64,000 bases of DNA from an uncultured bacterium (lineage in GTDB: Bacteria; Bacillota_I; Bacilli_A; RFN20; CAG-826). The notes below the pieces were generated by a model. That model worked only from the letters and a program-made list of their open reading frames with translations, had not been told where the DNA came from and did no database searches. This document shows positions 10,778 to 50,883 of this stretch, piece by piece (position 1 is the first letter of the stretch; each line of letters begins with the position of its first letter). A program made the position numbers and the translations under genes. The stretch spans positions 328,695 to 392,694 of the forward strand of contig CASGDR010000001.1 in assembly GCA_949300345.1 (NCBI GenBank). Reading direction: 5' to 3'.

Positions 10778-11977
10778 ATGTTCGGGCGCATACGGCGGAA
10801 CTTTCTCCTCGTAAGCCTGTTTTCGGTCTTTGTCGTTTTGTTCGTGCTGCTAGGTTCGATCAACATCAGCAACTATTTCAACATGGCCTCGGGCTGCGAT
10901 GAAGTCGTCGGCATGATCTTGGATAACGATGGGACCTTCCCCGATGGCAAAAGGCATGATCCTGACAGCCGTCCCGAGCTCCCCTTCCAGACCCGTTACT
11001 TCGATGTCACCTTCACCCCGGAAGGAGCAGTCTATGAAGTGGCCCTCGAGCACATCGCCATCACCCAGGAAACCGCCGTGCAAATATCCCTGGAAGTATA
11101 TGGCAACGGCTATGAACGGGGCTTCGTCGAAAATTACCGCTATGGCCATAAGACCCTCGACGACGGCAACGAACTCTATGTCTTCATGGATTGCTTTGAA
11201 GCCTTGGATGATTTCTATGTCTTCATGCGTTACTCCATCCTCTTTGGCTCGATAGGCTTTGCCCTGGTGGCCATCCTCCTATTCTTTCTTTCCGGACGGG
11301 TGCTATCCCCGGTCAAGGAATCCTTTGAAAAGCAGAAGCGCTTCATCACCGATGCGGGCCATGAGCTGAAGACCCCGCTTTCGATCATCTCCGCCGATAC
11401 GGAAATCATCGAAATGCAATCGGGATCCACCGAATGGACATCTTCCATAAAAGAACAGGCGGCCCGCCTTGCCAACATGACCGAAAAGCTGGTCCTCATG
11501 GCCAAAATGGACGAAGGCAAGCCGCTGGTCATGTCCAGCGTGGACATCTCCGCTTCCTTGGAAGAGGCTACCAAGGCCTTTGCTCCCCTAGCGGAAACCA
11601 AGAAGATGGAAATTGATTATCAAGGAAAGCCCGGACTCAACATTTCCGCCAACCCGGATAGCCTGGAGCAGATATGGGGGCTACTATTGGACAACGCCAT
11701 AAAGTATTCCGATGGGAAAACCATCAAGGTTCGGCTTTTCGAAGAAGGCAAATTCGTAAAGGCGGAATTTTCCAACCACTGCAGCGACATCAGCGAGGAA
11801 AGCCTCCAGCATGTCTTCGAGCGGTTCTATAGGAACGATGCTTCCCGCAACAGCTCTACCGGGGGACATGGCATCGGACTATCCTTGGCCGAGGCCATCA
11901 TGAATGCCCATAAGGGAAAGATCAAAGCCAGCTATGATGAGGGTATGGTTACTTTCTCGCTGTCTTTCCCAAAATAG
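10778..11977 (+). CDS. sensor histidine kinase
   Basis: N-terminal TM helices, H-box HELKTPLSIISADTEII, and HATPase N/G boxes (LLDNAIKYS, GGHGIGLSLA). The start abuts the response-regulator stop. Confidence 0.85.
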   Translation: MFGRIRRNFLLVSLFSVFVVLFVLLGSINISNYFNMASGCDEVVGMILDNDGTFPDGKRHDPDSRPELPFQTRYFDVTFTPEGAVYEVALEHIAITQETAVQISLEVYGNGYERGFVENYRYGHKTLDDGNELYVFMDCFEALDDFYVFMRYSILFGSIGFALVAILLFFLSGRVLSPVKESFEKQKRFITDAGHELKTPLSIISADTEIIEMQSGSTEWTSSIKEQAARLANMTEKLVLMAKMDEGKPLVMSSVDISASLEEATKAFAPLAETKKMEIDYQGKPGLNISANPDSLEQIWGLLLDNAIKYSDGKTIKVRLFEEGKFVKAEFSNHCSDISEESLQHVFERFYRNDASRNSSTGGHGIGLSLAEAIMNAHKGKIKASYDEGMVTFSLSFPK

Positions 11978-12111
11978 GCAGTGGTTAATCCAGTTTTAAG
12001 ACATTCTTGCTAAAGTAATGCCACTCTTGATTCCATGACCTCCATCTGGAATCGGAGCCAATCGATACATGCTTAGCGTGGCATCGGGGGCGCGGACCCC
12101 TAAGACCGCAC

Positions 12112-12147
12112 GGACCTTTTGGCCCCTTTGAAGGTCCGTTTTCATTT
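12112..12147 (+). terminator. rho-independent terminator after the two-component operon
   Basis: GGACCTT-(12 nt)-AAGGTCC stem followed by GTTTTCATTT. Confidence 0.4.
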
Positions 12148-13512
12148 GATGCGGCCAAAGCGTCTCAAAAATGAATATTTCTTTTCGCTATATGGAGGAT
12201 ATTTGACTTTGATTTCCGCCTTGGACTTGGCAAGCACGGGCTTGCTATGGGAGAAGGTCTCGAATGACTTCTTGCCATGGTAGCTGCCCATGCCGGAGCG
12301 GCCCACCCCGCCGAACGGCAGGTTTTCGTTTGTCAGATGCATGATGGTGTCGTTAAAGCAGCCGCCCCCAAAGGGCATGCGTCCTAGGACCTGCTTCCCC
12401 TTCTTCTTGTCACGGCTGAAATAATAAAAGGCCAAGGGCTTTTCGCGTTTGGAAATGATATTTAGAAGACTCTCTAGGTCATCAAAGGCGATGATCGGCA
12501 TGATGGGGCCGAAGATTTCTTCCTGCATGATGGGATCATCGAAACCGACCTCGTCCATGACCGTGGGTTCCAAAAGACGGCCCTCGGATTTGCCGCCTTT
12601 GACGACTTTGTCTGGATCGATGAAGGAAATAACCTTCTGGAAATGCTTTTCGTTTATGAGATAAGGGAAATCCCCATTGATATGGCCGTCCTGGTAATAA
12701 AAGGAATCGATGTAGGCGAAAACCTTTTCCAGGAAAGCATCATGGATAGAGGAATGGACGCAGATATAGTCAGGCGCCACGCATGTTTGCCCGGCATTCA
12801 GGAACTTGCCCCAGACGATGCGCCTTGCCGCTAGGTCGAGGTCGGCATCCTTATCGACGATGCAGGGGGATTTGCCGCCGAGCTCCAAGGAACAAGGGGT
12901 AAGATGGACAGCCGCCTTTTCTAAGACCAGGCGTCCCACCGTTTCCCCTCCGGTAAAGAAAATATAGTCGAAGCGCTGTTCCAAAAGGGCCTGGTTTTCA
13001 TTCCTTCTCCCTAGGACCACGGAGACAAGGCCCGGCTCCCCGAACTCCTCGAACATATCATGGATGGCTTGTGAAACGTTCTTGGCGTAACTAGCCGGCT
13101 TGATGAGGACCGTATTTCCGGCGGCAATGGCTCCGAATACGGGTTCGAGGGCCAGCTGGAGAGGGTAATTCCAAGGGGCCATTATGAGGACGCAGCCATA
13201 GGGTTCCTGATAAATGTAACCCTTGCTTGGGAAATTGACAGCCGATGTCCTTACCTTTCTGACCTTGGCCAACTTCCTAAGGTGCTTCTTCATGTAGCGG
13301 CACTCCTCGAGCACCATGAAGAATTCGGTAGATAGCACATCGAAGGGGCATTTGTTGAAATCGTTTTTGAAGGCCTCTTCGAACCGTAGACGGTATTTGA
13401 GAAGCAACTGCTCGATTTTTTCCAGATTGGCTTTCCTAGCTTCAAGGGACAATGTCTTCCCGGAAGCAAAATATTCCCTTTGCCTAGCCACTATACCTTC
13501 GATATCGTTCAT
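12142..13512 (-). CDS. NAD(P)-dependent aldehyde dehydrogenase (class-3-like)
   Basis: 456 aa. Catalytic ELGGKSP and GQTCVAP (Cys) motifs, and EEIFGPI. AGGAG RBS. Confidence 0.85.
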   Translation of the reverse strand: MNDIEGIVARQREYFASGKTLSLEARKANLEKIEQLLLKYRLRFEEAFKNDFNKCPFDVLSTEFFMVLEECRYMKKHLRKLAKVRKVRTSAVNFPSKGYIYQEPYGCVLIMAPWNYPLQLALEPVFGAIAAGNTVLIKPASYAKNVSQAIHDMFEEFGEPGLVSVVLGRRNENQALLEQRFDYIFFTGGETVGRLVLEKAAVHLTPCSLELGGKSPCIVDKDADLDLAARRIVWGKFLNAGQTCVAPDYICVHSSIHDAFLEKVFAYIDSFYYQDGHINGDFPYLINEKHFQKVISFIDPDKVVKGGKSEGRLLEPTVMDEVGFDDPIMQEEIFGPIMPIIAFDDLESLLNIISKREKPLAFYYFSRDKKKGKQVLGRMPFGGGCFNDTIMHLTNENLPFGGVGRSGMGSYHGKKSFETFSHSKPVLAKSKAEIKVKYPPYSEKKYSFLRRFGRIK

Positions 13513-38680: not shown

Positions 38681-39157
38681 ATGAAAAAACCCAAGCGTTA
38701 CGAGGTACTGGACCGCCCTTCTTACCATAGCGGGGAAACGGGCGACACATACGGTGGAACACTGTTCATTTCCTTTGTGCTTTGCCTACTTGCCATAGCC
38801 TTCTACTTCTTGGCTTATGTCAGTCCGATTGCCCTACATGAGGCCATCCTCATCAAGGAACAGGGCGGAGTCTCCACCTTTGAGGAATTCAGCCAGCTGG
38901 TCGGAACCGGGATTTTGTCCTTGGTGGGCTGCTATCTTGGCTACTATGTAAGCGCGGCGGCGGGCTATATCCTACTAGGGCTATTGGGGCTAGGGCTCCT
39001 ATTCACCCTAATAGCCACCATACTCTGCTTGGTTTCCTTCAGATCCTATCGGAAAGGAGACATCGTTTTTGCGGGGATATTCCTTTTCCTTGCCCTCTTG
39101 TTCTTGATACTATGCGGGTTCAAGGGATGGCTATACCTCGATAGTTTCGTATTATGA
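38681..39157 (+). CDS. hypothetical membrane protein
   Basis: 158 aa, 4 TM helices. Confidence 0.4.
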   Translation: MKKPKRYEVLDRPSYHSGETGDTYGGTLFISFVLCLLAIAFYFLAYVSPIALHEAILIKEQGGVSTFEEFSQLVGTGILSLVGCYLGYYVSAAAGYILLGLLGLGLLFTLIATILCLVSFRSYRKGDIVFAGIFLFLALLFLILCGFKGWLYLDSFVL

Positions 39158-40590
39158 AAGTCGGCATTTCCAAACAATTCATCGATCTGCTTTCGCAGTC
39201 CAAGGGGCACGCCCTAAGCGACCAAAGGGCCAAAGCCCGGCTCTTGGGCGACGCCTTCAACATCCTCTTCATGATCCCGGGATACGAAAACGGCAGGCGC
39301 CACAATTTCCAAAACGGCTATGAGGTCTATATGGGCCCGGGCTCCAGCCGCATCATCGTCTATGTATCCTCCAAGGAAAGGATCATCGTGAAGGCTGATA
39401 AGCACGATACCCTATACGATGGGGCCAGCTACCTCGTGGCCGAGAAGCCGGAGGCCTATGTCTATGCCGAACTTTCCGAGCTCGCGGCCCAAGGCTTTGC
39501 CCCCAAGCATGAAGATAAGCTCCTCGATGCCTTGCTTTCATTCGGCTTCCCCTATCCCTTCGTCATGCTGCTGGATAGGTTGGATGAAGGAATCAGAAGC
39601 CAAATCGTATTGAAGGAAAAAATCGACGGGGCCCTTGAAGTCCAAGCCAAACTCGAAAAAGCCAGGAAGGAAGCCACCAGGCTATATTCCCAATCGGTGG
39701 CCATGGCCTCGTTCCAGGAAAAGGAAAACGCGGCCCAGAAGGCCCGTGCCAAGCTCTTGGCCCAGCAGAAAGAAGAAGAGAAGAAGATCGAAGTCACCAT
39801 CATCGAGCCCGTCGAAGAGGTTATTGTCCAGACTCCGGCCAAGAAGGAAGAACCCTCCAAGGCCCTGCCCATCCAAAAAACCAAGGAAGAAAAGATCGTG
39901 GTCGACCCGGCCGCTTTGGAAAGGGCGATCCTTCGTTCCTTGGAAGAGAATTACAAAAAGCAAATCGAGAAATATAGCAAGATCAAAAAGGTGCCGCTGC
40001 GCCACGCGATACTTGCACCCAACGAATTCATCATCAAGTACACCGACCTCGGCGACTTGTTCAAGAAACTCGAAAGAAGGGTCCGCCGCTCGGGCTTAAA
40101 GCAATCGCGCGAAGGCTGGCTCATCCTTTTGGCCACCACGGTGCCCGAAGACCTCTATGATATTCTGGATAGCCATTATCCGGGCAAGGTCAAATACACC
40201 GATGATCCCAAGAAGGGAAAACTCGAGACGGCCATCATCATCAAGAAGGCCAAACCCGAGGACATCGAAGAAGCCGATCCGGGAGTCAAGAAGGTCAAGA
40301 CCAAGACCAAGCAATTCGAAGCCACCATCAGGGAATCTCTCGAGCAAGACGACGAGCTTCCCGACTTCCTGAAGTTCTTCCTAGACGAGGACGAGGAGGA
40401 AATCGAAAGTTCCTTCTTCGAAGAGGAAGAGGAAACTGCCCCCATCGAAATAGGGCCCAGCCATCCCAAGCATTGGCACTGCTACGTCTGCGGGAAGAAG
40501 AAGCTCTACCACGATGAGCCGGCCAAGACCATTACCCTCACCAACGGCAAAACGGCCTACCTATGCAAGAAACACAAGAATGCCCTCTAA
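39154..40590 (+). CDS. hypothetical Lys/Glu-rich protein with a C-terminal zinc ribbon; possible RelE/ParE-like N-terminal fold
   Basis: 478 aa. The N-terminal roughly 95 aa are GYEVYMGPGSSRIIVYVSSKERIIVKADKHDTLY. The middle is low-complexity K/E/A-rich coiled-coil-like. The C-terminus is HWHCYVCGKKK ... YLCKKHKNAL (CxxC...CxxH). Confidence 0.45.
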   Translation: MKVGISKQFIDLLSQSKGHALSDQRAKARLLGDAFNILFMIPGYENGRRHNFQNGYEVYMGPGSSRIIVYVSSKERIIVKADKHDTLYDGASYLVAEKPEAYVYAELSELAAQGFAPKHEDKLLDALLSFGFPYPFVMLLDRLDEGIRSQIVLKEKIDGALEVQAKLEKARKEATRLYSQSVAMASFQEKENAAQKARAKLLAQQKEEEKKIEVTIIEPVEEVIVQTPAKKEEPSKALPIQKTKEEKIVVDPAALERAILRSLEENYKKQIEKYSKIKKVPLRHAILAPNEFIIKYTDLGDLFKKLERRVRRSGLKQSREGWLILLATTVPEDLYDILDSHYPGKVKYTDDPKKGKLETAIIIKKAKPEDIEEADPGVKKVKTKTKQFEATIRESLEQDDELPDFLKFFLDEDEEEIESSFFEEEEETAPIEIGPSHPKHWHCYVCGKKKLYHDEPAKTITLTNGKTAYLCKKHKNAL

Positions 40591-41327
40591 TCAAGGAGGG
40601 CTTTTTTGACTGACATGGGATCGATGTTTTCATAGGTTAGGGTATCGACCAGGCCTTTGTATCTTTCCAATTGCTCAAGGTTTTCAATGGTGTAGCAATT
40701 TAGGATTCCGCCCTTTTTGCGGTATTTCTGCACGGATTTTTCTTCAATCAGGGGCAATTCGACATCAAGGGTTTCGAAAAATCCCTTCAGCATCAGGATG
40801 GATTTTACCTTGGTGGTCACCAGCAATCCCCTGACATAGCCCTTCCCAAAGGCCCATAAGGCCCTGGGGTCGAAGGAGATGACCATGACGTTTTCCCTAT
40901 GTGTAATGTTGCTATCAAGATAATGCCTAAGGGCCTTGCCGATCTTCCTAGCCCAGGCTCCCCTGCCTTTGATTTCCTCGGGGACCTTGATTTCCACGAC
41001 CATGGGCACCTCCCCATGGTTTAGGGCAATGACCTCCTCCAAACTGGGAATGGGCGAGCCATCGGGCAAGCGATGCTTACGGATTTCCTCAAAGGTCAGT
41101 TCCTCGATGAACCCCTCTTCCTTGGTCATCCTCCTAAGATCGGAATCATGGATGACTACAAAACGGCCGTCTTTACTTAGATGGACATCGAATTCAAAGG
41201 CCAGGCCTTTGCCTATGGCATTATTAAAGGCCCTGAGGCTATTTTCGGGCGCTAGCGCATCATGCAGTCCCCGGTGGGCCACCCCTTCCATGATGGCCCT
41301 AGGCATATCCTTCCTTTTGGCTTTCAT
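40587..41327 (-). CDS. glycerophosphodiester phosphodiesterase
   Basis: GDPD motifs VAHRG, EFDVHLSKDG and VVIHD. The track start at 41333 is TTG; the ATG chosen is 41327, with 41306 as an alternative. Confidence 0.7.
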   Translation of the reverse strand: MKAKRKDMPRAIMEGVAHRGLHDALAPENSLRAFNNAIGKGLAFEFDVHLSKDGRFVVIHDSDLRRMTKEEGFIEELTFEEIRKHRLPDGSPIPSLEEVIALNHGEVPMVVEIKVPEEIKGRGAWARKIGKALRHYLDSNITHRENVMVISFDPRALWAFGKGYVRGLLVTTKVKSILMLKGFFETLDVELPLIEEKSVQKYRKKGGILNCYTIENLEQLERYKGLVDTLTYENIDPMSVKKALLD

Positions 41328-41387
41328 CTTCAAGATTGTTGTCCTAGAAAAGTTATTTGAAAAGGCCCGGTTTCCCGAGCCTATATA

Positions 41388-42830
41388 TCAGTTGAGGGGT
41401 CCTAGGACCGGGAGCAAGGCTCCCTTGATGGTATTTTCCTTGGACTCGCGCCCGTACTTATCAACGCTGGCGGCATCGCGCAGCTCATGGGTCAAACAGC
41501 AGGGTCCTCCGATACAGCCGTTGAAGCAGGCCATGCCTTCGATGAAGTTGCCCTGGAGTGTATGGTTCTTCATCTGCATCAGGGCCGTGCGGCATCCGTC
41601 AAGTCCGGAGACGTTGACCGGTTTGTAATCAAAGTCCTCGATGCCCCTTTCCTTGAGGGCCTGGGCCACCGCGTCGCGAAGTCCGCCCGAGCGGGCAAAG
41701 ATACGACCGAAGTAGGAGGCATTGTCCAAAGGCTTTTCTTCCAAAGTGGGCAGATCGATCTGATAGGCATCGATCAGGGCCTGGAGTTCTTCGAATGTGA
41801 TGATGCAGTCGACATAGGGAGCGTTCTTGTTGGGCTCGAACTGCTCCATCTTCTTGGCGATGCAGGGACCGCAGAAGATGGTCTTGCAATCCGGATCGTT
41901 CTGCTTGAGCCACTGGGCAATCCTGGCCATCGGCGAGAGATTGTGGCTGATCTTTTCCTTGAGTTCGGGGAAGGAGGTTTCGATGTAGTGGACGAAGGCC
42001 GGGCAGCAGGAAGAGGTGAGTTCCCCTTTCTCGGCGAGCTCCTTGGCTTCGTCATAGGCGGTCATGTCGGCGCCGAGGGCGGCTTCCACGACTTCGTGGG
42101 CCCCGAGCAACTTGATGCCGGTGACGACCTGGCCGAGCTTGGCATAGTGGAATTGGCTGGAAATGGACGGGGCCACGATCATGTAGGCCTTGCATTTGCC
42201 GGCTTTGCAATCCTTGAGGATGTCGATGCAGTTTAGGATATAGGACTTATCGACGATGGCGCCGAAGGGACAGGCATAGGAGCAGGCCCCGCAGCGGGTG
42301 CACTTGCCCTCGTCGATTTCGGCGATGCCGTCGGGCCTAGCGTGGATGGCCTTGATCTTGCAGGAGGCCTCGCAGGGGCGGACCCTCTTGATGATGGCCT
42401 GATAGGGGCAGTTTTTGGCGCACATCCCGCACTGGACGCATTGGCTCTTGTCGATATGGGCATGAAGTTCCGGCCCGAAGCTGATGCACTTCTTGGGGCA
42501 GTTCTGGGCGCAGCGGTGGGCCAAGCATCCGCGGCAGGCATCGGTGACTTCCATCCCGCCGATCGGGCACTGATCGCAGGCCGCGTCGATGATTTCGAGC
42601 ATGTTGGGGTTGTTTTTGTCCCCGCCCATCGCAATTTTGACGCGCTCGGCGGCGATGGCCCTTTCCTTATAGATGCAACAGCGCATCGTGGGCTTGGGAC
42701 CCGGGGCAATGCGCTTGGGGATATCCACGATATCCTCCATCAGGGTGCCCCTATCGTAGGAAATCGCCACTTCCTTGAGAACCCGGTATTTGAGTTCCTG
42801 CACTTTGGTATCGAATTTCGGCTGTACCAT
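41388..42830 (-). CDS. [FeFe]-hydrogenase-family protein (H-cluster domain with N-terminal ferredoxin-like 4Fe-4S clusters, no PAS domain)
   Basis: H-cluster motifs L1 TSSCCPAFV, L2 FCGPCIAKKME, L3 EGMACFNGCIGGPCC. Three N-terminal Cys4 clusters (CDQCPIGG ... CRGC ... C, CVQCGMCAKNCP, CTRCGACSYACP). AGGAGA RBS. Confidence 0.8.
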   Translation of the reverse strand: MVQPKFDTKVQELKYRVLKEVAISYDRGTLMEDIVDIPKRIAPGPKPTMRCCIYKERAIAAERVKIAMGGDKNNPNMLEIIDAACDQCPIGGMEVTDACRGCLAHRCAQNCPKKCISFGPELHAHIDKSQCVQCGMCAKNCPYQAIIKRVRPCEASCKIKAIHARPDGIAEIDEGKCTRCGACSYACPFGAIVDKSYILNCIDILKDCKAGKCKAYMIVAPSISSQFHYAKLGQVVTGIKLLGAHEVVEAALGADMTAYDEAKELAEKGELTSSCCPAFVHYIETSFPELKEKISHNLSPMARIAQWLKQNDPDCKTIFCGPCIAKKMEQFEPNKNAPYVDCIITFEELQALIDAYQIDLPTLEEKPLDNASYFGRIFARSGGLRDAVAQALKERGIEDFDYKPVNVSGLDGCRTALMQMKNHTLQGNFIEGMACFNGCIGGPCCLTHELRDAASVDKYGRESKENTIKGALLPVLGPLN

Positions 42831-42841
42831 GTTTAGTCTCC

Positions 42842-44017
42842 TTAGAAATAGGCAACCTTGACCCTCTTGCCCATGAGTTTGAGCTTCGAGCTGAGCTTCT
42901 CGACGATCTGCATCTTCATATTGAAGCCGATATCATAGCGCGGGTCCTGATGGGCCGCGTTGATCGCACATCCGACATAGAAATCGATGTCGGTGGCTTC
43001 TTCGAAGAGCATCTTGGCGATGCGGCTGGCCCCATCCTGGCGGTAGGCCCACTCGAAGTATTTGTTGTTTTGTCCCAGATAGTCGTCGGCTAGGGACAAG
43101 ACCCGGTTGAGGGTGATGACCCCCTCTGTGGTCAGATCCACCCCTTCGATGGTCGAAGTGGGTGGGATTTCCCGGTCTTCATAGACCAGGCTTGGCAAGA
43201 CCGGCTTGCCCAGGAAATTGGAGGCAATCTTCGCGGTCGTGCCCCCGCAGACTATATGCTTCCCTTTTTTTGAAAAAAAGAGGGAAAGCATTTTGGTGTC
43301 GTCTTCTTTGTGGGTCGGAGGCCCGATGGCGATGCTCACCTGGCTTCTCTTCCTCAGTTTGATGGCGGCCGAGGTGGTGTCGTCGCCGGGATGGCCGTTA
43401 TAGAGGTCATTGCAGCGGCTGACCACCATGGTCGCGAGGATTTTGGCGGTGAAGGAGGGAGCGTATAGCCCTTCCAGGTAATTGACGATTTCCTTGCGTC
43501 CCCAGCCGAAGTTCAGGGTCTCCCCGACCCCGGCATAAATGCAGCCATCCGACATCGCTAGGATCGAATCCCCGGGATATAGACGGGTCTCGGCGGTCAT
43601 GATTTCCTTACCATCGGTTAGGGTTTTGCGGTAAACGAGGGGGAATTCACGGCCTTCGCGAAGTAGGACCGGCAAGGGATTGTCATAGTTATAGACATAG
43701 GCCCTATCCCCGTCCTTGACCAAGATTACGGTAAAGGTGCAATAGGCGATATTGCCCCTATCCTTGGCCACCGGAAGGGAGGCCACGAGGGCATCGACGC
43801 ACTCCTCGATGGAAAGCCCGGAGGAGACCATCGAGCTAAGGATGGTCGAGGTCAAGGTGGACAAGACCGCGGCCTTGACCCCCGAGCCTAGCCCATCGGC
43901 CAATACCAAGACCTGGGTATCCCCTTCGTCGAGGTATTGGACATGGTCCCCGCAGAGCTCCTCGCCCTTTTTGTTCAAAGAGAGGTAGCCCGCTTCAAGG
44001 ACGCAGTCTTCATTCAT
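42842..44017 (-). CDS. PP2C/SpoIIE-family serine phosphatase with an uncharacterised roughly 170-aa C-terminal domain
   Basis: PP2C motifs CGDHVQ ... VLADGLGSGVKA ... MSDG ... GHPGDDTT. The C-terminal region (GKHIVCGGTTAKI ...) is not assignable. The track start at 44023 is GTG; the ATG at 44017 has an AAAGG RBS. Overlaps the upstream hydS stop. Confidence 0.7.
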   Translation of the reverse strand: MNEDCVLEAGYLSLNKKGEELCGDHVQYLDEGDTQVLVLADGLGSGVKAAVLSTLTSTILSSMVSSGLSIEECVDALVASLPVAKDRGNIAYCTFTVILVKDGDRAYVYNYDNPLPVLLREGREFPLVYRKTLTDGKEIMTAETRLYPGDSILAMSDGCIYAGVGETLNFGWGRKEIVNYLEGLYAPSFTAKILATMVVSRCNDLYNGHPGDDTTSAAIKLRKRSQVSIAIGPPTHKEDDTKMLSLFFSKKGKHIVCGGTTAKIASNFLGKPVLPSLVYEDREIPPTSTIEGVDLTTEGVITLNRVLSLADDYLGQNNKYFEWAYRQDGASRIAKMLFEEATDIDFYVGCAINAAHQDPRYDIGFNMKMQIVEKLSSKLKLMGKRVKVAYF

Positions 44018-45692
44018 CGCCACGGCCTTTCTCCAAAGCCGCCTTCAGCTTGTTGAGGGCGACCTTGGTATCGGCGGCCGATTCGCCTAATAATAGGGCG
44101 ATTTCCTGGACCGCCTTCATGTGCTTGGCAACGACTTCGTCGGCGATGGCGACGGTTTCCTTGGTCTTCTCGTCGGTGGCGATGCGGCGCTTCCTGGCTT
44201 CGGTCACGTCGCGGTAGATGCCGATGAGAATGTGGTATTCCTTGTCGTGGGTGATTGTGAGTTCCGTAAAGCGTCCATAGTCGCTTAGGTATTCTCGCTT
44301 GTTGATGATCGGCGTCCCGTTTAGGGCCAATACGAAGGGTTCGGGATTGAGGATTGAAGCCAAATTGGAATGGATGAGGACGGAGGTGTCCTTGATGTTG
44401 AGCAATTCCCCCATCTTGGGGTTGACCAGCTGCAGGGTCAGATCCTCGCTGGCGACGATGATGCCGTTATTGGAGGAGCTGACGATGGAATTGGAGAAGG
44501 AGCGGGCCTTGCCCATCAGATAAGGCAGGCACATTTCCAGATTGGCCTTGCCGGTGATGACGGCCTTGGCCTTCTCGCGGCAGGTCTTATAGCCGCAGCA
44601 GGCGCAGTTGAGCTCGTCGGCCTTTGAGGATTTGCCGATCTCGTGAAGGACGTGCCTTATCTCTTCTTCCGAGGGTTCGGCTTCGATGACCCCGAGGGGG
44701 CGGAATTCCTTCTTGATGGATAAAGCGGTCTCCTCTTTGGCCTCGAAGTCTTCCTTCCCGGCCGAGCGGACGGTATCCAAATAGGCTTTCAAAGAGGGCC
44801 GTTTGGCATCAATGGCCGGGCCGTTGATGCAGCTGCCGGTGCAGCCGCTCATCTCGATGAAGGCCTTGTGGATCTTGCCCTCCTTGATTCCGTCGAGGGC
44901 GTGGCGGACTTCGTCCATCCCCGAAATCGGAAGATAGACATAATCACTATTCGGGCGGTCCATGGTCTTTAGGATTCCCCCGTCGGTGGGGAAAACCCTG
45001 GCCTTGGATTTGGTAAGGGGCTTAGCCTCTTCGGCTTCGACGGCAATGCCGTCTTCCTCGAGCATCTTCTTCAGCTCAAGGAAGGTCAGCACGCAGTCGT
45101 CATAGCCCTTATAGACATCGATCTCGTCTTTCTTGGAGATGCAGGGCCCGATGAAGATTACTGTATGGCCGGGCTTCCTTTCCTTGATGTCCCTAGCGTG
45201 GGCCAGCATCGGGGAAAGGTAGGGTGCGAGGCAGCCGATCAGCTCCGGATAGTATTTCTCCACGGTGAGGTTGACCGAGTGGCAGCAGGTGGAAATGATC
45301 ACGTCCTTCTCGGCTTTGGCTACTTCCTCGTCATAAAGCCTTTTGACGATGGTAGCCCCGATGGCAGTCTCTTCGGCGTCCTCGAAACCGAGCTGGATGA
45401 GAGCCCGCTTCAAAGAAGCAAAAGAGGCCTCCGGGAAGGCCGAAAGGTAGGATGGGGCCACCGAAGCGACGCAGTGGCCTGATTGGATCAGGCTCCTGGC
45501 CGCTCCGATGTCGTTTCTGATCTTCTTGGCGCCTTGGGGGCAAGCCAAATAGCAACGGCCGCAATAGACGCAGCCGTCCTGGATGATGCGCGCGACCGAA
45601 TCGCGAAAGGCGATCGACTTGGTCGGACACACCCGGATGCACTTGTAGCAGCTTCGGCAGTCAAGCGCCTCGCTGACCAAAGGGTAAGCCAC
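44010..45692 (-). CDS. hydS: HydS-type putative sensory [FeFe]-hydrogenase (ferredoxin-like N-terminus, H-domain, extra Cys4 motif and C-terminal PAS domain)
   Basis: N-terminal 2x[4Fe-4S] (CRSCYKCIRVCP, CVYCGRCYLACP). Variant H-cluster motifs L1 STCCHSV, L2 FIGPCISKKDE, L3 EMSGCTGSCINGPA. Additional CACCGYKTC motif. PAS-like C-terminal roughly 110 aa. GTG start with a GAGGA RBS. Confidence 0.75.
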   Translation of the reverse strand: MAYPLVSEALDCRSCYKCIRVCPTKSIAFRDSVARIIQDGCVYCGRCYLACPQGAKKIRNDIGAARSLIQSGHCVASVAPSYLSAFPEASFASLKRALIQLGFEDAEETAIGATIVKRLYDEEVAKAEKDVIISTCCHSVNLTVEKYYPELIGCLAPYLSPMLAHARDIKERKPGHTVIFIGPCISKKDEIDVYKGYDDCVLTFLELKKMLEEDGIAVEAEEAKPLTKSKARVFPTDGGILKTMDRPNSDYVYLPISGMDEVRHALDGIKEGKIHKAFIEMSGCTGSCINGPAIDAKRPSLKAYLDTVRSAGKEDFEAKEETALSIKKEFRPLGVIEAEPSEEEIRHVLHEIGKSSKADELNCACCGYKTCREKAKAVITGKANLEMCLPYLMGKARSFSNSIVSSSNNGIIVASEDLTLQLVNPKMGELLNIKDTSVLIHSNLASILNPEPFVLALNGTPIINKREYLSDYGRFTELTITHDKEYHILIGIYRDVTEARKRRIATDEKTKETVAIADEVVAKHMKAVQEIALLLGESAADTKVALNKLKAALEKGRGDE

Positions 45693-45722
45693 TTTTCCTC
45701 ATCTCCTTGAAAATGGGAACCG

Positions 45723-45971
45723 CTATAGGAGCGGGAGGACTTCTTTTTCGAAGACCTCCCGGCAATTGGCGGTGGTAACCCCGGTCACGATCTTGTCCTC
45801 GACCTTGATGGAGACGCCGGCAAAGCCGCACTTGCCGAGGCAGAATGCCGCGGACAGCTTCACGGTGTCTCCCAAGCCGCGGTCGGCTACCTCCTTCTGA
45901 AAGGCTCCGATGACATCATAGGAGTCCTTCAGGTGGCAGCTCGAACCGACACAGATGGCGACGGTTACCAT
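45723..45971 (-). CDS. thioredoxin-like [2Fe-2S] ferredoxin (NuoE/HndA-like small Fe-S protein)
   Basis: 82 aa with the Cys pattern CVGSSC ... (31 aa) ... CLGKC. Its start overlaps the adhE stop. Confidence 0.55.
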   Translation of the reverse strand: MVTVAICVGSSCHLKDSYDVIGAFQKEVADRGLGDTVKLSAAFCLGKCGFAGVSIKVEDKIVTGVTTANCREVFEKEVLPLL

Positions 45972-45972
45972 G

Positions 45973-48594
45973 TTAGTTTCCCTTATAGGCGTTGCGCATG
46001 ATTTGGATCATATCGGGGATCAGGGGCACCTTGGGGTTGGCCGGGGTGCACTGGTCCTCGTAGGCCGCATATGCGAGTTCTTCGAGGTGGGATTCCCACT
46101 GCTTCTCATCGGGGACGAGGGAGCAGAAGTTCATGTCGATGCCGATTTCCTTGCCTAAGGCAAGCACGGCATCGGCGAGGGCCTTGACGCCTTCTTCCGG
46201 AGTGGAATGGGGCAAGCCCAGGGTCTTGGCGATGGCCTGGTATTTGCGGTCGCATTCGTACTCTTCGTACTTGGGCCAGATAGAGAGCTTGCTGGGCACG
46301 GTGCCGTTATAGCGGATGACGTGCGGGAGCAAGATGGCGCAGGTGCGGCCGTGGACGGTGTGGAATTCGGCACCGATCTTGTGGGCCATGGAGTGGGCGA
46401 TGCCAAGGAAGGCGTTGGCAAAGGCCATGCCGGCGATGGAGGCAGCATTGTGCATCTTTTCGCGGGCCTTGGGATCGCTCTTGCCGTTTTTGACGCAGCG
46501 GGGCAGATATTCGAAGACCAGACGGATGGCTTCCAGGGCTAGGCCGTCGGTGTAATCGCTGGCCATGACCGAGGTGTAGGCCTCGATGGCGTGGGTGAGC
46601 ACGTCCATGCCGGTTTCGGCGGTCGACTTGGCAGGCAGGAAGGTAGTGAACTCCGGATCGACGATGGCGATGGTCGGAGTAAGGCTATAGTCGGTCAGCG
46701 GGTACTTCTTGAAGTTGGCCTTGTCGGAAATGACGGCGAAGGGGGTAACTTCGGACCCGGTGCCGGAAGTGGTCGGGATGCAGATGAGCTTGGTCTTCTG
46801 ACCGAGTTCGGGATATTTGAAGGCGCGCTTGCGGATATCCATGAACTTCTGCTTGAGGTCGTCGAAGTTGACTTCGGGGTGTTCATAGAACAGCCACATG
46901 ACCTTGGCCGCGTCCATCGGGGAGCCGCCGCCGAGGGCAATGATTGTATCGGGCTGGAACTGCTGCATCAGGGCCACGCCGCGCTTGACGGTCGTGATGT
47001 CCGGATCGGGTTCGACTTCGCTGAAGAGCTGGTAGGTCACCTTGTTGCGGCGCTGGTTGAGCTCGTCGATGATCTTGTTGAGGAAGCCGAGCTCGACCAT
47101 GGAGCGGTCGGTGACGATGAAGACCTTGCCGACCTCTTTGGCCGAGCGCAGGTACTGGATGGAATTGCGTTCGAAATAGATCTTGCGCGGTACTTTGAAC
47201 CACTGCATGGTGTTTCTCCTTTTGCCGACTTGCTTGATGTTCAGTAGATTGATGGCCGAAACGTTTCCGGCGACCGAGTTATGCCCGTATGAGCCGCAGC
47301 CCAAGGTGAGCGAAGGCAGGAAGGAGTTATAGACGTTGCCGATGCCGCCGAAGGTGGTCGGCTGGTTCCAAAGCACGCGGATGGCCTTGACGGTATCGCC
47401 GAACTTATCGGCCATTTCCTGGTCATGGCAGTGGATGCCGGCGGAGTGTCCGAGGCCGCCGAATTCGAGCATGGCTTCCGAGAGCCTGGTGCCCTCTTCG
47501 ATGCCCTTGACCTTATAGATGGCAAGGACCGGCGAGAGCTTTTCGCGGGACATCGGTTCCTTGGGTCCGACTTCCTTGCATTCCACGACGAGAATGGAGG
47601 TATTGGCCGGGACTTCGAAGCCGGAGTTGCGGGCGATTTCCACGCTGGACATGCCGGCGACGGCGGCGTTGAGCCTCGCGTTTTCGACGCCTTCTTCGCC
47701 CTTGGAAACCCCGAACATGTACTTCTCGAGCTTGCGGGCTTCCTCCGCGGTAGCGATGTGGGCATGGAATTTCTTGAGGTAGCTAACCACGTCCTTGTAA
47801 ATCGGCTCGTCGACGAAGATGGCCGATTCGGAAGCGCAGATCATGCCGTTGTCGAAGTTCTTGGAAATGAGGACGTCGTTGACGGCCCTTTCCACTTCGG
47901 CGGAACGGTCGATGTAGCACGGGACGTTGCCGGCCCCGACGCCGAGGGCGGGTTTGCCGCAGCTATAGGCGGCATTGACCATGGCGTTGCCGCCGGTCGC
48001 CAGGATGGTGGCGATGCCCGGGTGCTTCATCAAGGCGCTGGTGGCATCCATGCTGGGGTGCTCGACCCATTGGATGCAGTTTTCCGGAGCCCCGGCAGCC
48101 ACGGCGGCGTCACGCATGACGATGGCGGCAGCCTTGGAGCATTCCTGGGCCTTGGGATGGAAGGCAAAGACGATCGGGTTGCGGGTCTTGATGCAGATGA
48201 GCGACTTGAAGATGACCGTCGAGGTCGGGTTGGTGACCGGGGTGATGCCGCAGACCACGCCGACGGGTTCGGCGATGCGGGTGATGCCGGTGACCGGATT
48301 GGAATCGATGATGCCGACGGTCTTCAGATGCCTCATGTTGTTTACCACGTATTCGCAGGCAAACAGGTTCTTGGTGGCCTTGTCTTCGAAGCAGCCCCTC
48401 TTGGTCTCTTCGATGGCCTTGCGGGCCAAAATGCCGTGGTGATCGAGGCCGGCTACCGACATCTTGGCGACTATGTAGTCAATTTTTTCCTGGTCGAAGC
48501 TGGCAAATTCGTCAAGGGCCTTCAAACCCTTTTTGACCAGGGCGTCCACTTCGGCCTGAGCAGCCTCGGCCGGGGTGAGTTTTTTCTCTTCCAT
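45973..48594 (-). CDS. adhE: bifunctional acetaldehyde-CoA / alcohol dehydrogenase
   Basis: 873 aa. N-terminal ALDH domain followed by a C-terminal iron-containing ADH domain (GGGSPMDAAK ... iron-ligand histidines). AGGAGG RBS lying inside the 3' end of rex. Confidence 0.9.
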   Translation of the reverse strand: MEEKKLTPAEAAQAEVDALVKKGLKALDEFASFDQEKIDYIVAKMSVAGLDHHGILARKAIEETKRGCFEDKATKNLFACEYVVNNMRHLKTVGIIDSNPVTGITRIAEPVGVVCGITPVTNPTSTVIFKSLICIKTRNPIVFAFHPKAQECSKAAAIVMRDAAVAAGAPENCIQWVEHPSMDATSALMKHPGIATILATGGNAMVNAAYSCGKPALGVGAGNVPCYIDRSAEVERAVNDVLISKNFDNGMICASESAIFVDEPIYKDVVSYLKKFHAHIATAEEARKLEKYMFGVSKGEEGVENARLNAAVAGMSSVEIARNSGFEVPANTSILVVECKEVGPKEPMSREKLSPVLAIYKVKGIEEGTRLSEAMLEFGGLGHSAGIHCHDQEMADKFGDTVKAIRVLWNQPTTFGGIGNVYNSFLPSLTLGCGSYGHNSVAGNVSAINLLNIKQVGKRRNTMQWFKVPRKIYFERNSIQYLRSAKEVGKVFIVTDRSMVELGFLNKIIDELNQRRNKVTYQLFSEVEPDPDITTVKRGVALMQQFQPDTIIALGGGSPMDAAKVMWLFYEHPEVNFDDLKQKFMDIRKRAFKYPELGQKTKLICIPTTSGTGSEVTPFAVISDKANFKKYPLTDYSLTPTIAIVDPEFTTFLPAKSTAETGMDVLTHAIEAYTSVMASDYTDGLALEAIRLVFEYLPRCVKNGKSDPKAREKMHNAASIAGMAFANAFLGIAHSMAHKIGAEFHTVHGRTCAILLPHVIRYNGTVPSKLSIWPKYEEYECDRKYQAIAKTLGLPHSTPEEGVKALADAVLALGKEIGIDMNFCSLVPDEKQWESHLEELAYAAYEDQCTPANPKVPLIPDMIQIMRNAYKGN

Positions 48595-48595
48595 C

Positions 48596-49234
48596 TTAAT
48601 CCTCCTTCAGGATATCCCTGATGCGGTGAGAGAGGACCGCAAGGGAACTAGCGAGATTGACGTCTTCGACGAAGACGCCCGCCGGAGCCGCTATGTGGGT
48701 CGGAGCAAAGTTCCAGATTCCGACCGCACCCCCGGCGATGGCCTTGTCCGCTACGCTTTGGGCGTGGGATGCAGGCACGCAGATGATGGCGATATGGGCA
48801 TTGAGGCGGGGCATCATTTCCTCTAGGCGCGACACATCCATGATGGCCTTGCCATTGATTTCGATTCCGATCTTATCGCTGGAGGAATCGAAAGCGGCGA
48901 TGATGTCCAACCCCATGTCGGCAAAACCCGGATAGTCTAAAAGGGCCTGGCCCATGCGGCCGACCCCGATGAGGACTGCGGTCGTCGAATCGCGGTAGCC
49001 CAGAAACGTCTCGATGTCGTCAATGAGTCCCTGCACTTCGCGTCCCCTGCCGGGTACACCGGAGTTGTTGGTGACTGCAGCCAAATCCTTTTTGACCTGC
49101 TCCTCATTATAACCTAGTCTAGAGGCTATCAGTCTACTGGAAGCAAAAGCGCGGCCCTCGTTGCGGAGTTCCTTGAGGATCTTCAGGTAAATCGGGTAAC
49201 GCGTCAGTTGGTTCTGGGAGAATGACTTTGTCAT
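48596..49234 (-). CDS. rex: redox-sensing transcriptional repressor Rex
   Basis: Winged-helix N-terminus (RYPIYLKILKEL) and a Rossmann NADH-binding domain (VLIGVGRMGQALLDY ... GIWNFAP). The track start at 49264 is TTG; the first ATG is 49234. The stop lies 1 nt before the adhE ATG. Confidence 0.8.
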   Translation of the reverse strand: MTKSFSQNQLTRYPIYLKILKELRNEGRAFASSRLIASRLGYNEEQVKKDLAAVTNNSGVPGRGREVQGLIDDIETFLGYRDSTTAVLIGVGRMGQALLDYPGFADMGLDIIAAFDSSSDKIGIEINGKAIMDVSRLEEMMPRLNAHIAIICVPASHAQSVADKAIAGGAVGIWNFAPTHIAAPAGVFVEDVNLASSLAVLSHRIRDILKED

Positions 49235-49267
49235 AGCAACTCGGTAATTTTTTACCGAAAACAAATA

Positions 49268-49282
49268 TATACCACAGGTATA
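49268..49282. promoter_or_regulatory. perfect palindrome TATACC-aca-GGTATA immediately upstream of rex; candidate operator
   Basis: 6-bp inverted arms with a 3-nt spacer, located 35-50 nt upstream of the rex ATG. It is not the canonical Rex box TTGTGAAnnnnnnTTCACAA. Confidence 0.25.
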
Positions 49283-49316
49283 GGCTATGCAACAAAAATC
49301 GGTAAATAAATCCCGA

Positions 49317-50348
49317 TTATTTTACCGGTGTAATGAAGAAGCGCCCGTAGACCTGCACCAATTCGGTCACCTGGATGAAGGAAGACGGGTCTTCGGTCTG
49401 GATGACCGAGATGGCATCCTTTAGCTCATAGGAAGAGACGACCATGGTAATAATGTACTTGTCGGCGTGGGAATAGGCACCCTGGGCCCGGACTATGGTC
49501 GCGGCATGGGGAAATACCTCTATTAGATAAGAGGCAAGGTCTTCCCTGGCCGTCACTATTTCGATCTTGGTCTTCTTGTTGCGGATGTTGATGGTATCCA
49601 CCACTATTTGGCTGACCATTATATAAAGGACGGTGAAGAACAAAGAAGCAAAGGCCACGATGACCTCATTGTAGGCCCAGCCGGCCTTGGTCGCGGTAAG
49701 AAGGAAGAAGGCCAAGGCCACGGTGCCGTTTAGCATCATCGCGTATTTCCCGGTCAGGGTGGATTTCTTCAAAGCGATGTAATAGGCGATGACGTCGATT
49801 CCGCCGGGGGAGAGGTCGAACTTGAAGGCGATCGCGGTCGATAGTCCGGTCAGGACGCCGGCGAATAGGGCCCGGGCCAGCATGCCTCCGTTCTGGTTGA
49901 TGAAGTCCACGAAGGATGAGAGCCACTCGATGGGAAGCGAGCCCAAAAGGGAAGTCAAAATGGATACCGAGGCGACATTGATGAGGGTAAAGATGGTGAA
50001 CCTCTTGGAAATGCCGACCCAGGAAAGGATCAGGATGGGGATATTGAGGACAAAGTAGAGAATCGAATAGGCGACGGCGTGGTTGATTTCCACCATCGGG
50101 AAAAGCAACTCCAAGGCCAGGGTCAATGTTTGGCTGACGCCGGACATGCCACCGGAAACGATGGGATCGAGGGTCGCGCCATCGACGGGGGCCGAGGGAG
50201 CAAGGAAGCAGACATAGCCAAAGGCAAAGCAGAATGCCGAAAGGGTCGACATCAGTATTGCCACCGTATTTTCGTAGATTCCCTTGGCTACTGGGTGTCC
50301 GGCTAGGAACACCTGCACCTTGTCATTTACATGCCTTTTCTTGCCCAT
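49317..50348 (-). CDS. YitT-family membrane protein (DUF161 + DUF2179)
   Basis: 343 aa, about 5 TM helices, then the C-terminal soluble DUF2179-like region EIVTAREDL ... VTELVQVYG. Confidence 0.65.
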   Translation of the reverse strand: MGKKRHVNDKVQVFLAGHPVAKGIYENTVAILMSTLSAFCFAFGYVCFLAPSAPVDGATLDPIVSGGMSGVSQTLTLALELLFPMVEINHAVAYSILYFVLNIPILILSWVGISKRFTIFTLINVASVSILTSLLGSLPIEWLSSFVDFINQNGGMLARALFAGVLTGLSTAIAFKFDLSPGGIDVIAYYIALKKSTLTGKYAMMLNGTVALAFFLLTATKAGWAYNEVIVAFASLFFTVLYIMVSQIVVDTINIRNKKTKIEIVTAREDLASYLIEVFPHAATIVRAQGAYSHADKYIITMVVSSYELKDAISVIQTEDPSSFIQVTELVQVYGRFFITPVK

Positions 50349-50883
50349 GCGGACTGATTATAAGGATTCGCTTCCGTGAGCGTTAGAGAATTCGTGAACG
50401 AATATAGAGATATTGCCAATGTGGCAAAGATAGGGTTAAGGAAGGCGCGATGATGGAGAGTGAAAACCCCTACATAGACCAAAGTCGTTGCCCTTCGTTC
50501 TCTCCGCGGCAAGATGGACCAAGGACGGATTGGAAGGAAGGCACCGCCAACGTTGATTAGAAGACTAAAACCAAGAAGAAAGCCAATTCAAAATCAAGCC
50601 GAATAACAGCAATTCCAAGTTGGTTTTGCGGGGTTAAAGCTCAATCCGTGAGGTTTTTGCCACATATGTTGAAAGCCCGCCAATGGCCAAAGCTGAGCAA
50701 AATCGTCCAACTTTTTGTTGGAAAGCAAGGATGCCGTTTATAGAATATTGCCGGTCTTAAGGCACTCGGGCAGATGTCCTTCCCTTAAGGGAAAAGGGGC
50801 CAAATGGCTTCTTGTCACCCTTATAGGGTAGTGATATTATTAGCCCGCTGTTCACAACAGACACGCATTTCGGAGCAAACCAA

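Follow-up and report, generated by a model that had tools for sequence, protein, structure and literature searches.

A probable Bacilli-type counterpart of the H2-responsive rex-adhE-hydS-hydA2 cluster of Ruminococcus albus, in a form with one ferredoxin and without a cluster kinase

The stretch of DNA under study comprises 64,000 nucleotides of contig CASGDR010000001.1 from an uncultured bacterium of the Bacilli_A (hereafter the window), and it carries on its minus strand six consecutive genes encoding Rex, AdhE, a small ferredoxin, the sensor-type [FeFe]-hydrogenase HydS, a PP2C phosphatase and a second [FeFe]-hydrogenase. We consider it likely that this locus is the counterpart, in a bacterium whose nearest named relatives bear the label Bacilli, of the H2-responsive cluster of the R. 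albus type, whose general order is rex-adhE-(kinase)-fdx-(fdx)-hydS-PP2C-hydA2 (fdx, ferredoxin gene). In other terms, it would be the hfsABCD module with rex and adhE placed in front, in a form having no kinase and a single ferredoxin. The gene order is far beyond what chance would produce, since it recurs in dozens of genomes.

The six co-directional genes were verified by the listing of open reading frames and by direct reading of the strand, and the identities attributed to them by an earlier note on this DNA, which was made from the letters alone, are all backed by Pfam and NCBIfam families. The first gene, rex (48596–49234), encodes 212 residues with Put_DNA-bind_N (PF06971) and CoA_binding (PF02629) domains, an intact GxGxxG motif and a non-canonical wing (KKDLAAVTNNSGVPGRGR), and its product scores 222 bits against NF003994 (cut-off 130). 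Its start is placed at the ATG at 49234, whose product (MTKSFSQNQL) agrees with the homologues; the TTG at 49264, which the listing had taken as the rex start, is unlikely. Next come adhE (45973–48594), for a bifunctional acetaldehyde-CoA/alcohol dehydrogenase of 873 residues scoring 1366 bits against NF010378 (cut-off 951), and an hfsA-like gene (45723–45971) for a small thioredoxin-like [2Fe-2S] ferredoxin of 82 residues with cysteines spaced as C-X4-C-X31-C-X3-C, scoring 25.8 bits against 2Fe-2S_thioredx (PF01257; cut-off 24.8). The last three genes are hydS/hfsB (44010–45692), for a putative H2-sensing [FeFe]-hydrogenase of group C with 560 residues, an hfsC-like gene (42842–44017) for a PP2C/SpoIIE-family Ser/Thr phosphatase of 391 residues, and a gene of the hydA2/hfsD type (41388–42830) for a monomeric group B [FeFe]-hydrogenase of 480 residues.

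From rex to hydA2 the successive junctions measure 1, 1, 30, −8 and 11 nt, in agreement with the earlier description of a head-to-tail series with gaps of 30 nt or less. The rex stop lies one nucleotide before the adhE start (TAA-G-ATG), with an AAGGAGG ribosome-binding site within rex, and the hydS TGA overlaps the PP2C ATG by 8 nt (ATGAATGA); these features, as well as the 11 nt between the PP2C gene and hydA2, had been read correctly. The overlap claimed for the adhE stop and the ferredoxin start was wrong, as the two are separated by one nucleotide (TAA-C-ATG). An AAGGAG ribosome-binding site is contained in the 30-nt interval that separates the ferredoxin gene from hydS, which starts with GTG.

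The comparison that best defines the locus is with the rumen bacterium R. albus 7, whose plasmid pRUMAL01 was found by searching a plasmid collection with the HydS protein. Its annotation lists on one strand Rex, AdhE, a phosphotransferase, two (2Fe-2S) ferredoxins, a [FeFe] hydrogenase-like protein, a SpoIIE phosphatase and a 4Fe-4S dicluster protein. This plasmid-borne cluster (RUMAL_RS17350 to RS17385) is made up of eight genes, rex-adhE-kinase-fdx-fdx-hydS-PP2C-hydA2, in the order and orientation seen in the window, with a like overlap of the hydS stop and PP2C start and with like motifs in HydS and HydA2. Each window protein has its cluster counterpart as best match on pRUMAL01, in the same order, and the identities amount to 34% for Rex, 44.5% for AdhE, 42–44% for the ferredoxin (with both R. 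albus copies), 44.5% for HydS, 51% over the full length for PP2C and 62% for HydA2. The two clusters differ in that the window is devoid of the 249-residue APH-type phosphotransferase and has only one small 2Fe-2S gene, directly 5' of hydS, where R. albus has two. The R. albus cluster, which later papers trace to Zheng et al. 2014 (PMC5707799, PMC10838669), has been described as a system in which H2 levels turn the formation of ethanol and H2 on and off; its expression drops 111-fold when R. albus is grown together with an H2 consumer (Greening et al. 2019, PMC6776011), a single transcript is reported for the sensor, the hydrogenase and the alcohol dehydrogenase (PMC6776011), and HydA2 and HydS belong to one transcription unit (PMC10838669).

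The last four genes of the window cluster form the same module as hfsABCD of Thermoanaerobacterium saccharolyticum and T. thermosaccharolyticum (Shaw 2009, Eminoglu 2017), and the connection with Thermoanaerobacterales hfs clusters that had been proposed from the sequence is thereby borne out. In this module, also without a kinase, HfsA is a small ferredoxin-like protein, HfsB a PAS hydrogenase, HfsC a PP2C phosphatase and HfsD a ferredoxin-linked hydrogenase, the relation to the window proteins being drawn from the homology to R. albus HydS and HydA2 stated in the papers. The arrangement differs as to the first two genes: in Thermoanaerobacterium adhE and rex are found at separate loci (Tsac_0416, Tsac_2615) from hfs (Tsac_1550), whereas in the window both are joined to the module. 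In T. saccharolyticum, adhE transcripts increase two- to threefold upon deletion of either hfsA or hfsB, and deletion of hfsA lowers expression of the downstream hfs genes (PMC5707799); Rex boxes, which in Thermoanaerobacterium are of the canonical TTGTTAA type, have been predicted 5' of both adhE and hfsABCD (PMC5886521). As for HfsD, it has been described as a hydrogenase that is linked to ferredoxin and resembles R. albus HydA2 (PMC11837493). For Clostridium thermocellum the comparison was made by the locus tags given in papers, Clo1313_1799 for a Rex paralogue, 1798 for adhE and 1795 for hfsB, and this succession implies the same rex-adhE-...-hfsB neighbourhood in that organism.

The distribution of the cluster was established with a HydS profile scan of one genome per species, which retrieved 80 loci, annotated by tblastn searches in which the proteins of R. 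albus and of the window served as queries; counts refer to the 51 loci having at least 5.3 kb upstream and at least 2.8 kb downstream. Among these, adhE is found upstream in 30, rex in 28 and the kinase in 26, the full eight-gene order is present in 11 and the exact six-gene order of the window in 8 (L005, L006, L007, L009, L011, L012, L013 and L049); L008 has the six-gene order too, but falls under the downstream-flank cut-off. Five of the eight six-gene loci are labelled Bacilli, Bacillales or Anaeroplasmatales, and the labels of L007, L009 and L013 are Gemmiger formicilis, Slackia isoflavoniconvertens and uncultured Firmicutes. The comparison of synteny in related genomes thus shows that the arrangement recurs, with the rex-adhE head in 28 to 30 of the 51 loci. 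As the same fused order is present in R. albus and in many other genomes, the arrangement is not new, contrary to how it had been presented in the earlier note.

The best HydS match in the one-genome-per-species set is 55% identical. The closest relative of the window locus, L084, has a HydS 64% identical and the same six genes, and both clusters are bordered upstream by a gene of the YitT family and downstream by one of the GDPD family. L084 has in addition (11333–12451) a gene of the DUF362/4Fe-4S type, fused to the hydA2 end and overlapped by the GDPD-family gene. In the window, a 54-nt spacer (41334–41387) with a terminator-like hairpin separates hydA2 from the GDPD-family gene, so that close relatives do not share the 3' limit of the operon.

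By its domains, the protein at the head of the cluster belongs to the Rex family of repressors. The earlier identification of the rex frame holds on alignment, as the winged-helix domain (PF06971) and the NAD(H) domain (PF02629) with its GxGxxG motif are both present; against structures the protein matches 3wg9 with E 8e-31, and alignment to 3wg9 and 5zz5 evidences IGVGRMGQ and the FD motif. Fold, domain order, GxGxxG and FD motif are those of canonical Rex proteins (Thermus aquaticus, Bacillus subtilis, Thermoanaerobacter ethanolicus RSP). What sets the cluster Rex proteins apart, the one of the window included, is the wing, which has in common the altered pattern RKDLxxVSxxGxPKxG[Y/R] in place of the canonical RKDLSYFGEFGKRGVGY, GxGxxG and the FD motif being kept. 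In the window it reads xAVTNNSGVPGRGR, to be compared with the canonical xYFGEFGKRGVGY. The subtype to which the window Rex belongs, found in mostly Bacilli-labelled genomes, has a wing one residue longer than that of R. albus, ending in GR rather than GY. Rex_1799 of C. thermocellum is also a divergent paralogue, 34–36% identical to canonical Rex, and the Rex of the window is likewise divergent.

A parallel change is observed at the DNA level. A search for Rex boxes gave no canonical box in the 64 kb of the window (TTGTKAANNNNTTMACAA; TTGTGAA or TTGTTAA, N4, TTCACAA or TTAACAA, with up to two mismatches), and a variant palindrome of 7-4-7 architecture is found instead. A perfect copy, TCGGTAAAAAATTACCGA, lies on the minus strand at 49241–49258, between the candidate −10 element described below and the rex ATG, and is the only exact match in the window; an imperfect copy, TCGGGATTTATTTACCGA, with two mismatches to TCGGTAANNNNTTACCGA, lies on the same strand at 49299–49316, where it directly follows the stop of the YitT-family gene and closely precedes the candidate −35 element. 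This palindrome, of the type TCGGTAA-N4-TTACCGA, shares with the canonical operator the 18-bp 7-4-7 geometry and the AT-rich centre. Set beside the canonical TTGTTAA-N4-TTAACAA box, the window palindrome agrees with it at 10 of 14 positions, with two symmetric differences per half-site. Its half-site TCGGTAA takes the place of the TTGTGAA or TTGTTAA of canonical operators; in R. albus (L002) the half-site is TCGATAA, within a palindrome of this family situated about 85 nt 5' of rex.

Across the related loci the palindrome follows the pattern TC[GA][GA]TA[AT]-N4-5-[AT]TA[CT][CT]GA, which occurs 32 times without mismatch in the 1.34 Mb of loci and about once in shuffled sequence; 27 of the 32 lie within 300 nt 5' of the gene that opens the cluster. 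Of 35 rex genes, 33 are preceded within about 220 nt by a site agreeing at 12 or more of 14 positions. Considering the Rex-box geometry, the conserved position 5' of rex and the altered wing, we propose the palindrome as a putative operator of the cluster-specific Rex paralogue, in which case the operon would be autoregulated. A search of the literature for this palindrome returned only noise, with no description of it in the papers searched.

It could be argued that the palindrome is the site of another regulator, encoded elsewhere in the genome, and that the cluster Rex acts through distant canonical boxes or without autoregulation. The assignment to Rex is indeed drawn from sequence, the palindrome also precedes a few clusters without a nearby rex, and the agreement of wing type with half-site sequence is incomplete, no more than a trend. 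However, no DNA-binding protein other than Rex is conserved in the clusters, and the upstream neighbours vary (YitT-family here, LysR-family in R. albus); the palindrome has the geometry of a Rex box, accompanies nearly every cluster rex and goes along with a changed DNA-binding wing, and the window holds no canonical box. We thus regard another regulator as unlikely, and retain the cluster Rex as the proposed ligand of the palindrome.

These observations lead to a broader proposal, to which we give somewhat less than even chances: that the cluster-head rex genes constitute a dedicated paralogue family, distinct from the global Rex, whose remodelled wing and own operator (TC[G/A][G/A]TA[A/T]-N4-5-[A/T]TA[C/T][C/T]GA) would insulate an autoregulated H2/NADH/ethanol module from the general Rex regulon, with the six-gene form indicating that the HydS-PP2C relay works without a cluster kinase. 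If so, the search for the phosphatase substrate would narrow to Rex, AdhE, the 2Fe-2S protein and HydA2, which are common to both forms.

By spacing and by analogy with R. albus, it is plausible that the six genes form a single transcription unit headed by rex. Only one plausible promoter is present in the 82 nt that separate the YitT-family gene from rex, a candidate recognized by eye on the minus strand at 49264–49292 (TTGCAT at 49292–49287, a 17-nt spacer and TATATT at 49269–49264) and flanked by the two palindromes. Scanning the coding strand from 40500 to 50500 for consensus promoters gave none, and the same interval has 14 terminator-like matches where 11.7 are expected, a number that chance accounts for. 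At the other end, a terminator-like hairpin on the minus strand (41360–41382) begins 6 nt past the hydA2 stop, with an 8-bp stem, a GAAA loop and then UUUU; it has a dG of −15.9 kcal/mol and a z of −4.5, none of 200 shuffles folds as well, and its U-tract is too short for the scan. The hairpin followed by UUUU after the last stop makes for a plausible weak terminator. The Rfam scan returned five tRNAs only, with no riboswitch or leader near the operon.

The six genes could instead be adjacent and yet belong to separate units, rex-adhE and an hfsABCD-like unit with promoters of their own as in Thermoanaerobacterium, so that their linkage would reflect no more than a shared regulon. Such a division finds some echo in comparative data, as hfsABCD occurs without rex or adhE in many genomes (Monoglobus, and about 20 of the 51 loci), and in the rex-less loci L017, L022, L055 and L079 a palindrome lies directly 5' of the ferredoxin gene or hydS. 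In the window the largest gap also falls on the side between adhE/ferredoxin gene and hydS. Nevertheless, this gap of 30 nt holds a ribosome-binding site only, adhE and the ferredoxin gene are one nucleotide apart, and no copy of the operator is present inside the gene cluster; the empty promoter scan and the chance level of terminator-like matches point in the same direction, as does the co-regulation and co-transcription reported for the R. albus cluster. Separate units therefore appear quite improbable, and the single unit headed by rex is the arrangement retained in what follows.

HydS shows the organization of a sensor. Its domain order is 2x[4Fe-4S], H-domain, a C-terminal 4-Cys site (CxxCxxxxC...C), PAS and a long J-alpha-like helix, and in Pfam it matches Fe_hyd_lg_C (3.4e-43) and PF04060 (3e-8). 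The motifs STCCHS, FIGPC, EMSGC and NCACCGYKTC were read from it, and alignment with solved hydrogenases places Gly (FIGPC) at the position of M353 and Ser (EMSGC) at that of M497, while the C299/C300 Cys pair and all H-cluster cysteines are kept. The motifs quoted in the earlier note for the PAS protein (TCCH in L1, FIGPC, MSGC in L3 and CACCGYKTC) are accordingly present, and the alignment gives a group C pattern at M353 and M497. They are, however, hallmarks of the family rather than deviations, since STCCHS or SSCCHS, I/VGPC, EMS(A/S/G)C and a C-terminal CxxCGxxxC are near-universal in HydS orthologues. Among sensory/group C sequences, Gly at the M353 position is found in about 51% and Cys at the C299 position in 17% (PMC10055695).

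The HydS of Thermotoga maritima (TmHydS; group C, M2f) has the same domain logic, with 2x[4Fe-4S], H-domain, C-terminal [4Fe-4S] site and PAS, and the same substitutions of M353 by Gly and M497 by Ser; the two proteins differ at C299, where TmHydS has Ala and the window HydS keeps Cys. Their genomic partners differ as well, such sensors adjoining bifurcating hydrogenases and kinases in other lineages. These features suggest that HydS of the window is a group C (M2f) sensor, with a predicted low turnover and a predicted role in H2 sensing.

The PAS domain is below threshold in Pfam (E 0.0037). In the AlphaFold model of residues 395–560 a five-stranded PAS core with pLDDT (predicted local distance difference test) of about 90 is followed by a helix of about 60 residues, and a Foldseek search with this model gives as top matches short LOV/PAS proteins with a J-alpha helix (E 4e-7), by which the presence of the PAS fold is confirmed. 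The helix after the PAS (residues ~497–560; 44013–44200, minus strand) contains the near-invariant VQEIAxLLGExAAxTKxAL and resembles a J-alpha output helix. This C-terminal helix is probably the contact surface for the phosphatase.

A distinct picture is obtained for the second hydrogenase. It scores 510.6 bits against TIGR04105 (monomeric [FeFe] hydrogenase, group B1; cut-off 450), for which HydS gives 193, and its motifs SSCCPAF, FCGPC and EGMAC keep the equivalents of C299 and M497. The earlier note was right in that both hydrogenases have Gly at L2, but not in taking this as the sign of a sensor or of a non-catalytic protein, for it is the norm in both families. Indeed, all HydA2 orthologues examined have I/VGPC at L2, including R. 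albus HydA2 (FIGPC), which is described as a ferredoxin-dependent H2-producing enzyme (PMC10838669), and Gly occupies this position in the active enzyme CpIII as well (PMC10055695), so that this residue is no mark of a sensor. Being of the HydA2/HfsD type of group B, as judged by the family score, the kept residues and the 62% identity to R. albus HydA2, the protein is probably a catalytic, ferredoxin-linked, H2-evolving enzyme, and the sensor-like reading of it falls. An assignment to group D (M2e, TamHydS-like) or to another sensor type is ruled out by TIGR04105, by the kept Cys and Met and by the lack of a 4-Cys C-terminal domain, the protein ending about 30 residues past L3 and thus without the C-terminal cluster domain of group D.

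The first 225 residues of the phosphatase constitute a complete PP2C domain, matching SpoIIE (PF07228, 2.2e-16) and conserving CGD, ADGxGSG, SDG and PGDDT; the profile search of the PDB gives SpoIIE (1.3e-10), 5mqh (2.3e-11, named only as 'Serine phosphatase') and RsbX (2e-6). A conserved, unannotated, Rossmann-like C-terminal domain follows, for which no Pfam family was found and for which the PDB profile search gave only a non-significant match to 3trj, a phosphoheptose isomerase chain (E 0.08).

As to an opposing kinase, the one in the R. albus cluster is a putative Ser/Thr kinase, an APH/RIO-like phosphotransferase. The earlier note had reported that the window has no HATPase kinase partner. 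The absence holds for the APH type, since tblastn with the R. albus protein against the whole 64-kb window gave noise only (best E 0.13; not every window open reading frame was scanned for HATPase domains), whereas the kind of kinase it expected was mistaken, the kinase of these clusters being of the APH and not of the HATPase type. Given its presence in 26 of the 51 loci and its absence from all eight six-gene loci, the kinase is a variable member of the family and not a universal one. We have also observed that it tends to accompany two tandem small 2Fe-2S genes (Kin-Fdx-Fdx), the kinase-less forms, window included, having one; the correlation is incomplete, as several loci have Fdx-Fdx without kinase or Kin-Fdx.

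From these assignments the following mechanism can be proposed, by which the functional interpretation given in the earlier note is for the most part upheld. At low NADH/NAD+ the cluster Rex paralogue would bind the two operators of the TCGGTAA-N4-TTACCGA type and repress the whole operon, its own gene included. When H2 builds up, reoxidation of NADH by other hydrogenases would be blocked and NADH would release Rex, upon which a single mRNA would supply AdhE (NADH and acetyl-CoA to ethanol), HydA2 (reduced ferredoxin to H2) and the sensor module. HydS would then bind H2 at an H-cluster of low turnover, as expected from the changes of M353 to Gly and M497 to Ser, possibly with the small 2Fe-2S protein as redox partner, and the signal would pass from the C-terminal [4Fe-4S] site through the PAS and the long helix to PP2C, whose gene is translationally coupled to hydS. 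PP2C would dephosphorylate some target and so tune ethanol against H2 output, either transcriptionally or post-translationally, while the opposing kinase may be encoded elsewhere in the genome or be dispensable in this lineage. A similar principle operates in the HoxBC-HoxJ-HoxA system of Ralstonia eutropha, in which a [NiFe]-hydrogenase of low activity senses H2 and controls hydrogenase genes via a phosphorylation relay; the likeness, pointed out in PMC6776011 and PMC5707799, is one of analogy only, as the proteins are unrelated, with [NiFe] against [FeFe] and a histidine kinase and response regulator against PAS and PP2C.

The original reading of 'Hfs', by which ferredoxin, HydS, PP2C and HydA2 would make up one multisubunit catalytic hydrogenase with HydS as a second active site or an electron-transfer subunit, could appeal to the retained H-cluster cysteines and C299 equivalent of HydS, to the measurable activity of TmHydS (PMC10055695), to the translational coupling of the genes, which suggests a complex, and to the lower hydrogenase activity of T. 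saccharolyticum upon deletion of the whole hfs operon (PMC5707799). It is nonetheless very improbable, because deletion of hfsB alone raised hydrogenase activity and altered adhE expression, which is a regulatory phenotype (PMC5707799), expression of hfsD alone restores the phenotype in T. thermosaccharolyticum (PMC11837493), and HydS itself bears the group C substitutions at M353 and M497 along with a PAS and a modelled output helix, its gene being fused in register with the phosphatase gene.

A number of points nevertheless weigh against the proposal of an H2-responsive unit controlled by Rex. The candidate promoter is weak, with 8 of 12 consensus positions and a score under the scan threshold, the ribosome-binding site of rex is poor, and co-transcription in the organism of the window is argued from spacing and analogy. 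The match between palindrome and Rex is likewise made on sequence grounds, and wing and half-site agree only as a trend. In T. saccharolyticum rex expression rose with ethanol, which is the opposite of simple Rex repression (PMC5707799), and the sign of the HydS effect differs between systems, high H2 meaning induction in R. albus while deletion of hfsB raises adhE in T. saccharolyticum. The Cys that HydS keeps at the C299 position is a minority state in group C and may allow appreciable catalytic activity; work on TamHydS, a group D enzyme, questions redox signalling via the C-terminal cluster (PMC13104023).

The sensing of H2 by fermenters and the switch between acetate plus H2 and ethanol bear on rumen methane, on gut H2 cycling and on engineered ethanol producers. 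Since R. albus, C. thermocellum and Thermoanaerobacterium have already served for work on this cluster, the locus does not raise the question anew. It adds the reach of the cluster into mostly Bacilli-labelled genomes, a minimal kinase-less form, and a testable candidate for the operator of the Rex paralogue specific to these clusters, along with some 80 loci for comparison.

Elsewhere in the window, the segment 16001–20000 has a G+C content of 0.41–0.45, compared with about 0.52 in the remainder, and may be an acquired segment; tRNA-His (13646), tRNA-Glu (20324) and tRNA-Gly (22163) are found near it. Finally, an open reading frame of 478 residues on the plus strand (39154–40590) has a long Lys/Glu-rich centre and a Cys/His-rich C-terminal segment (HWHCYVCGKKK...CKKHK).

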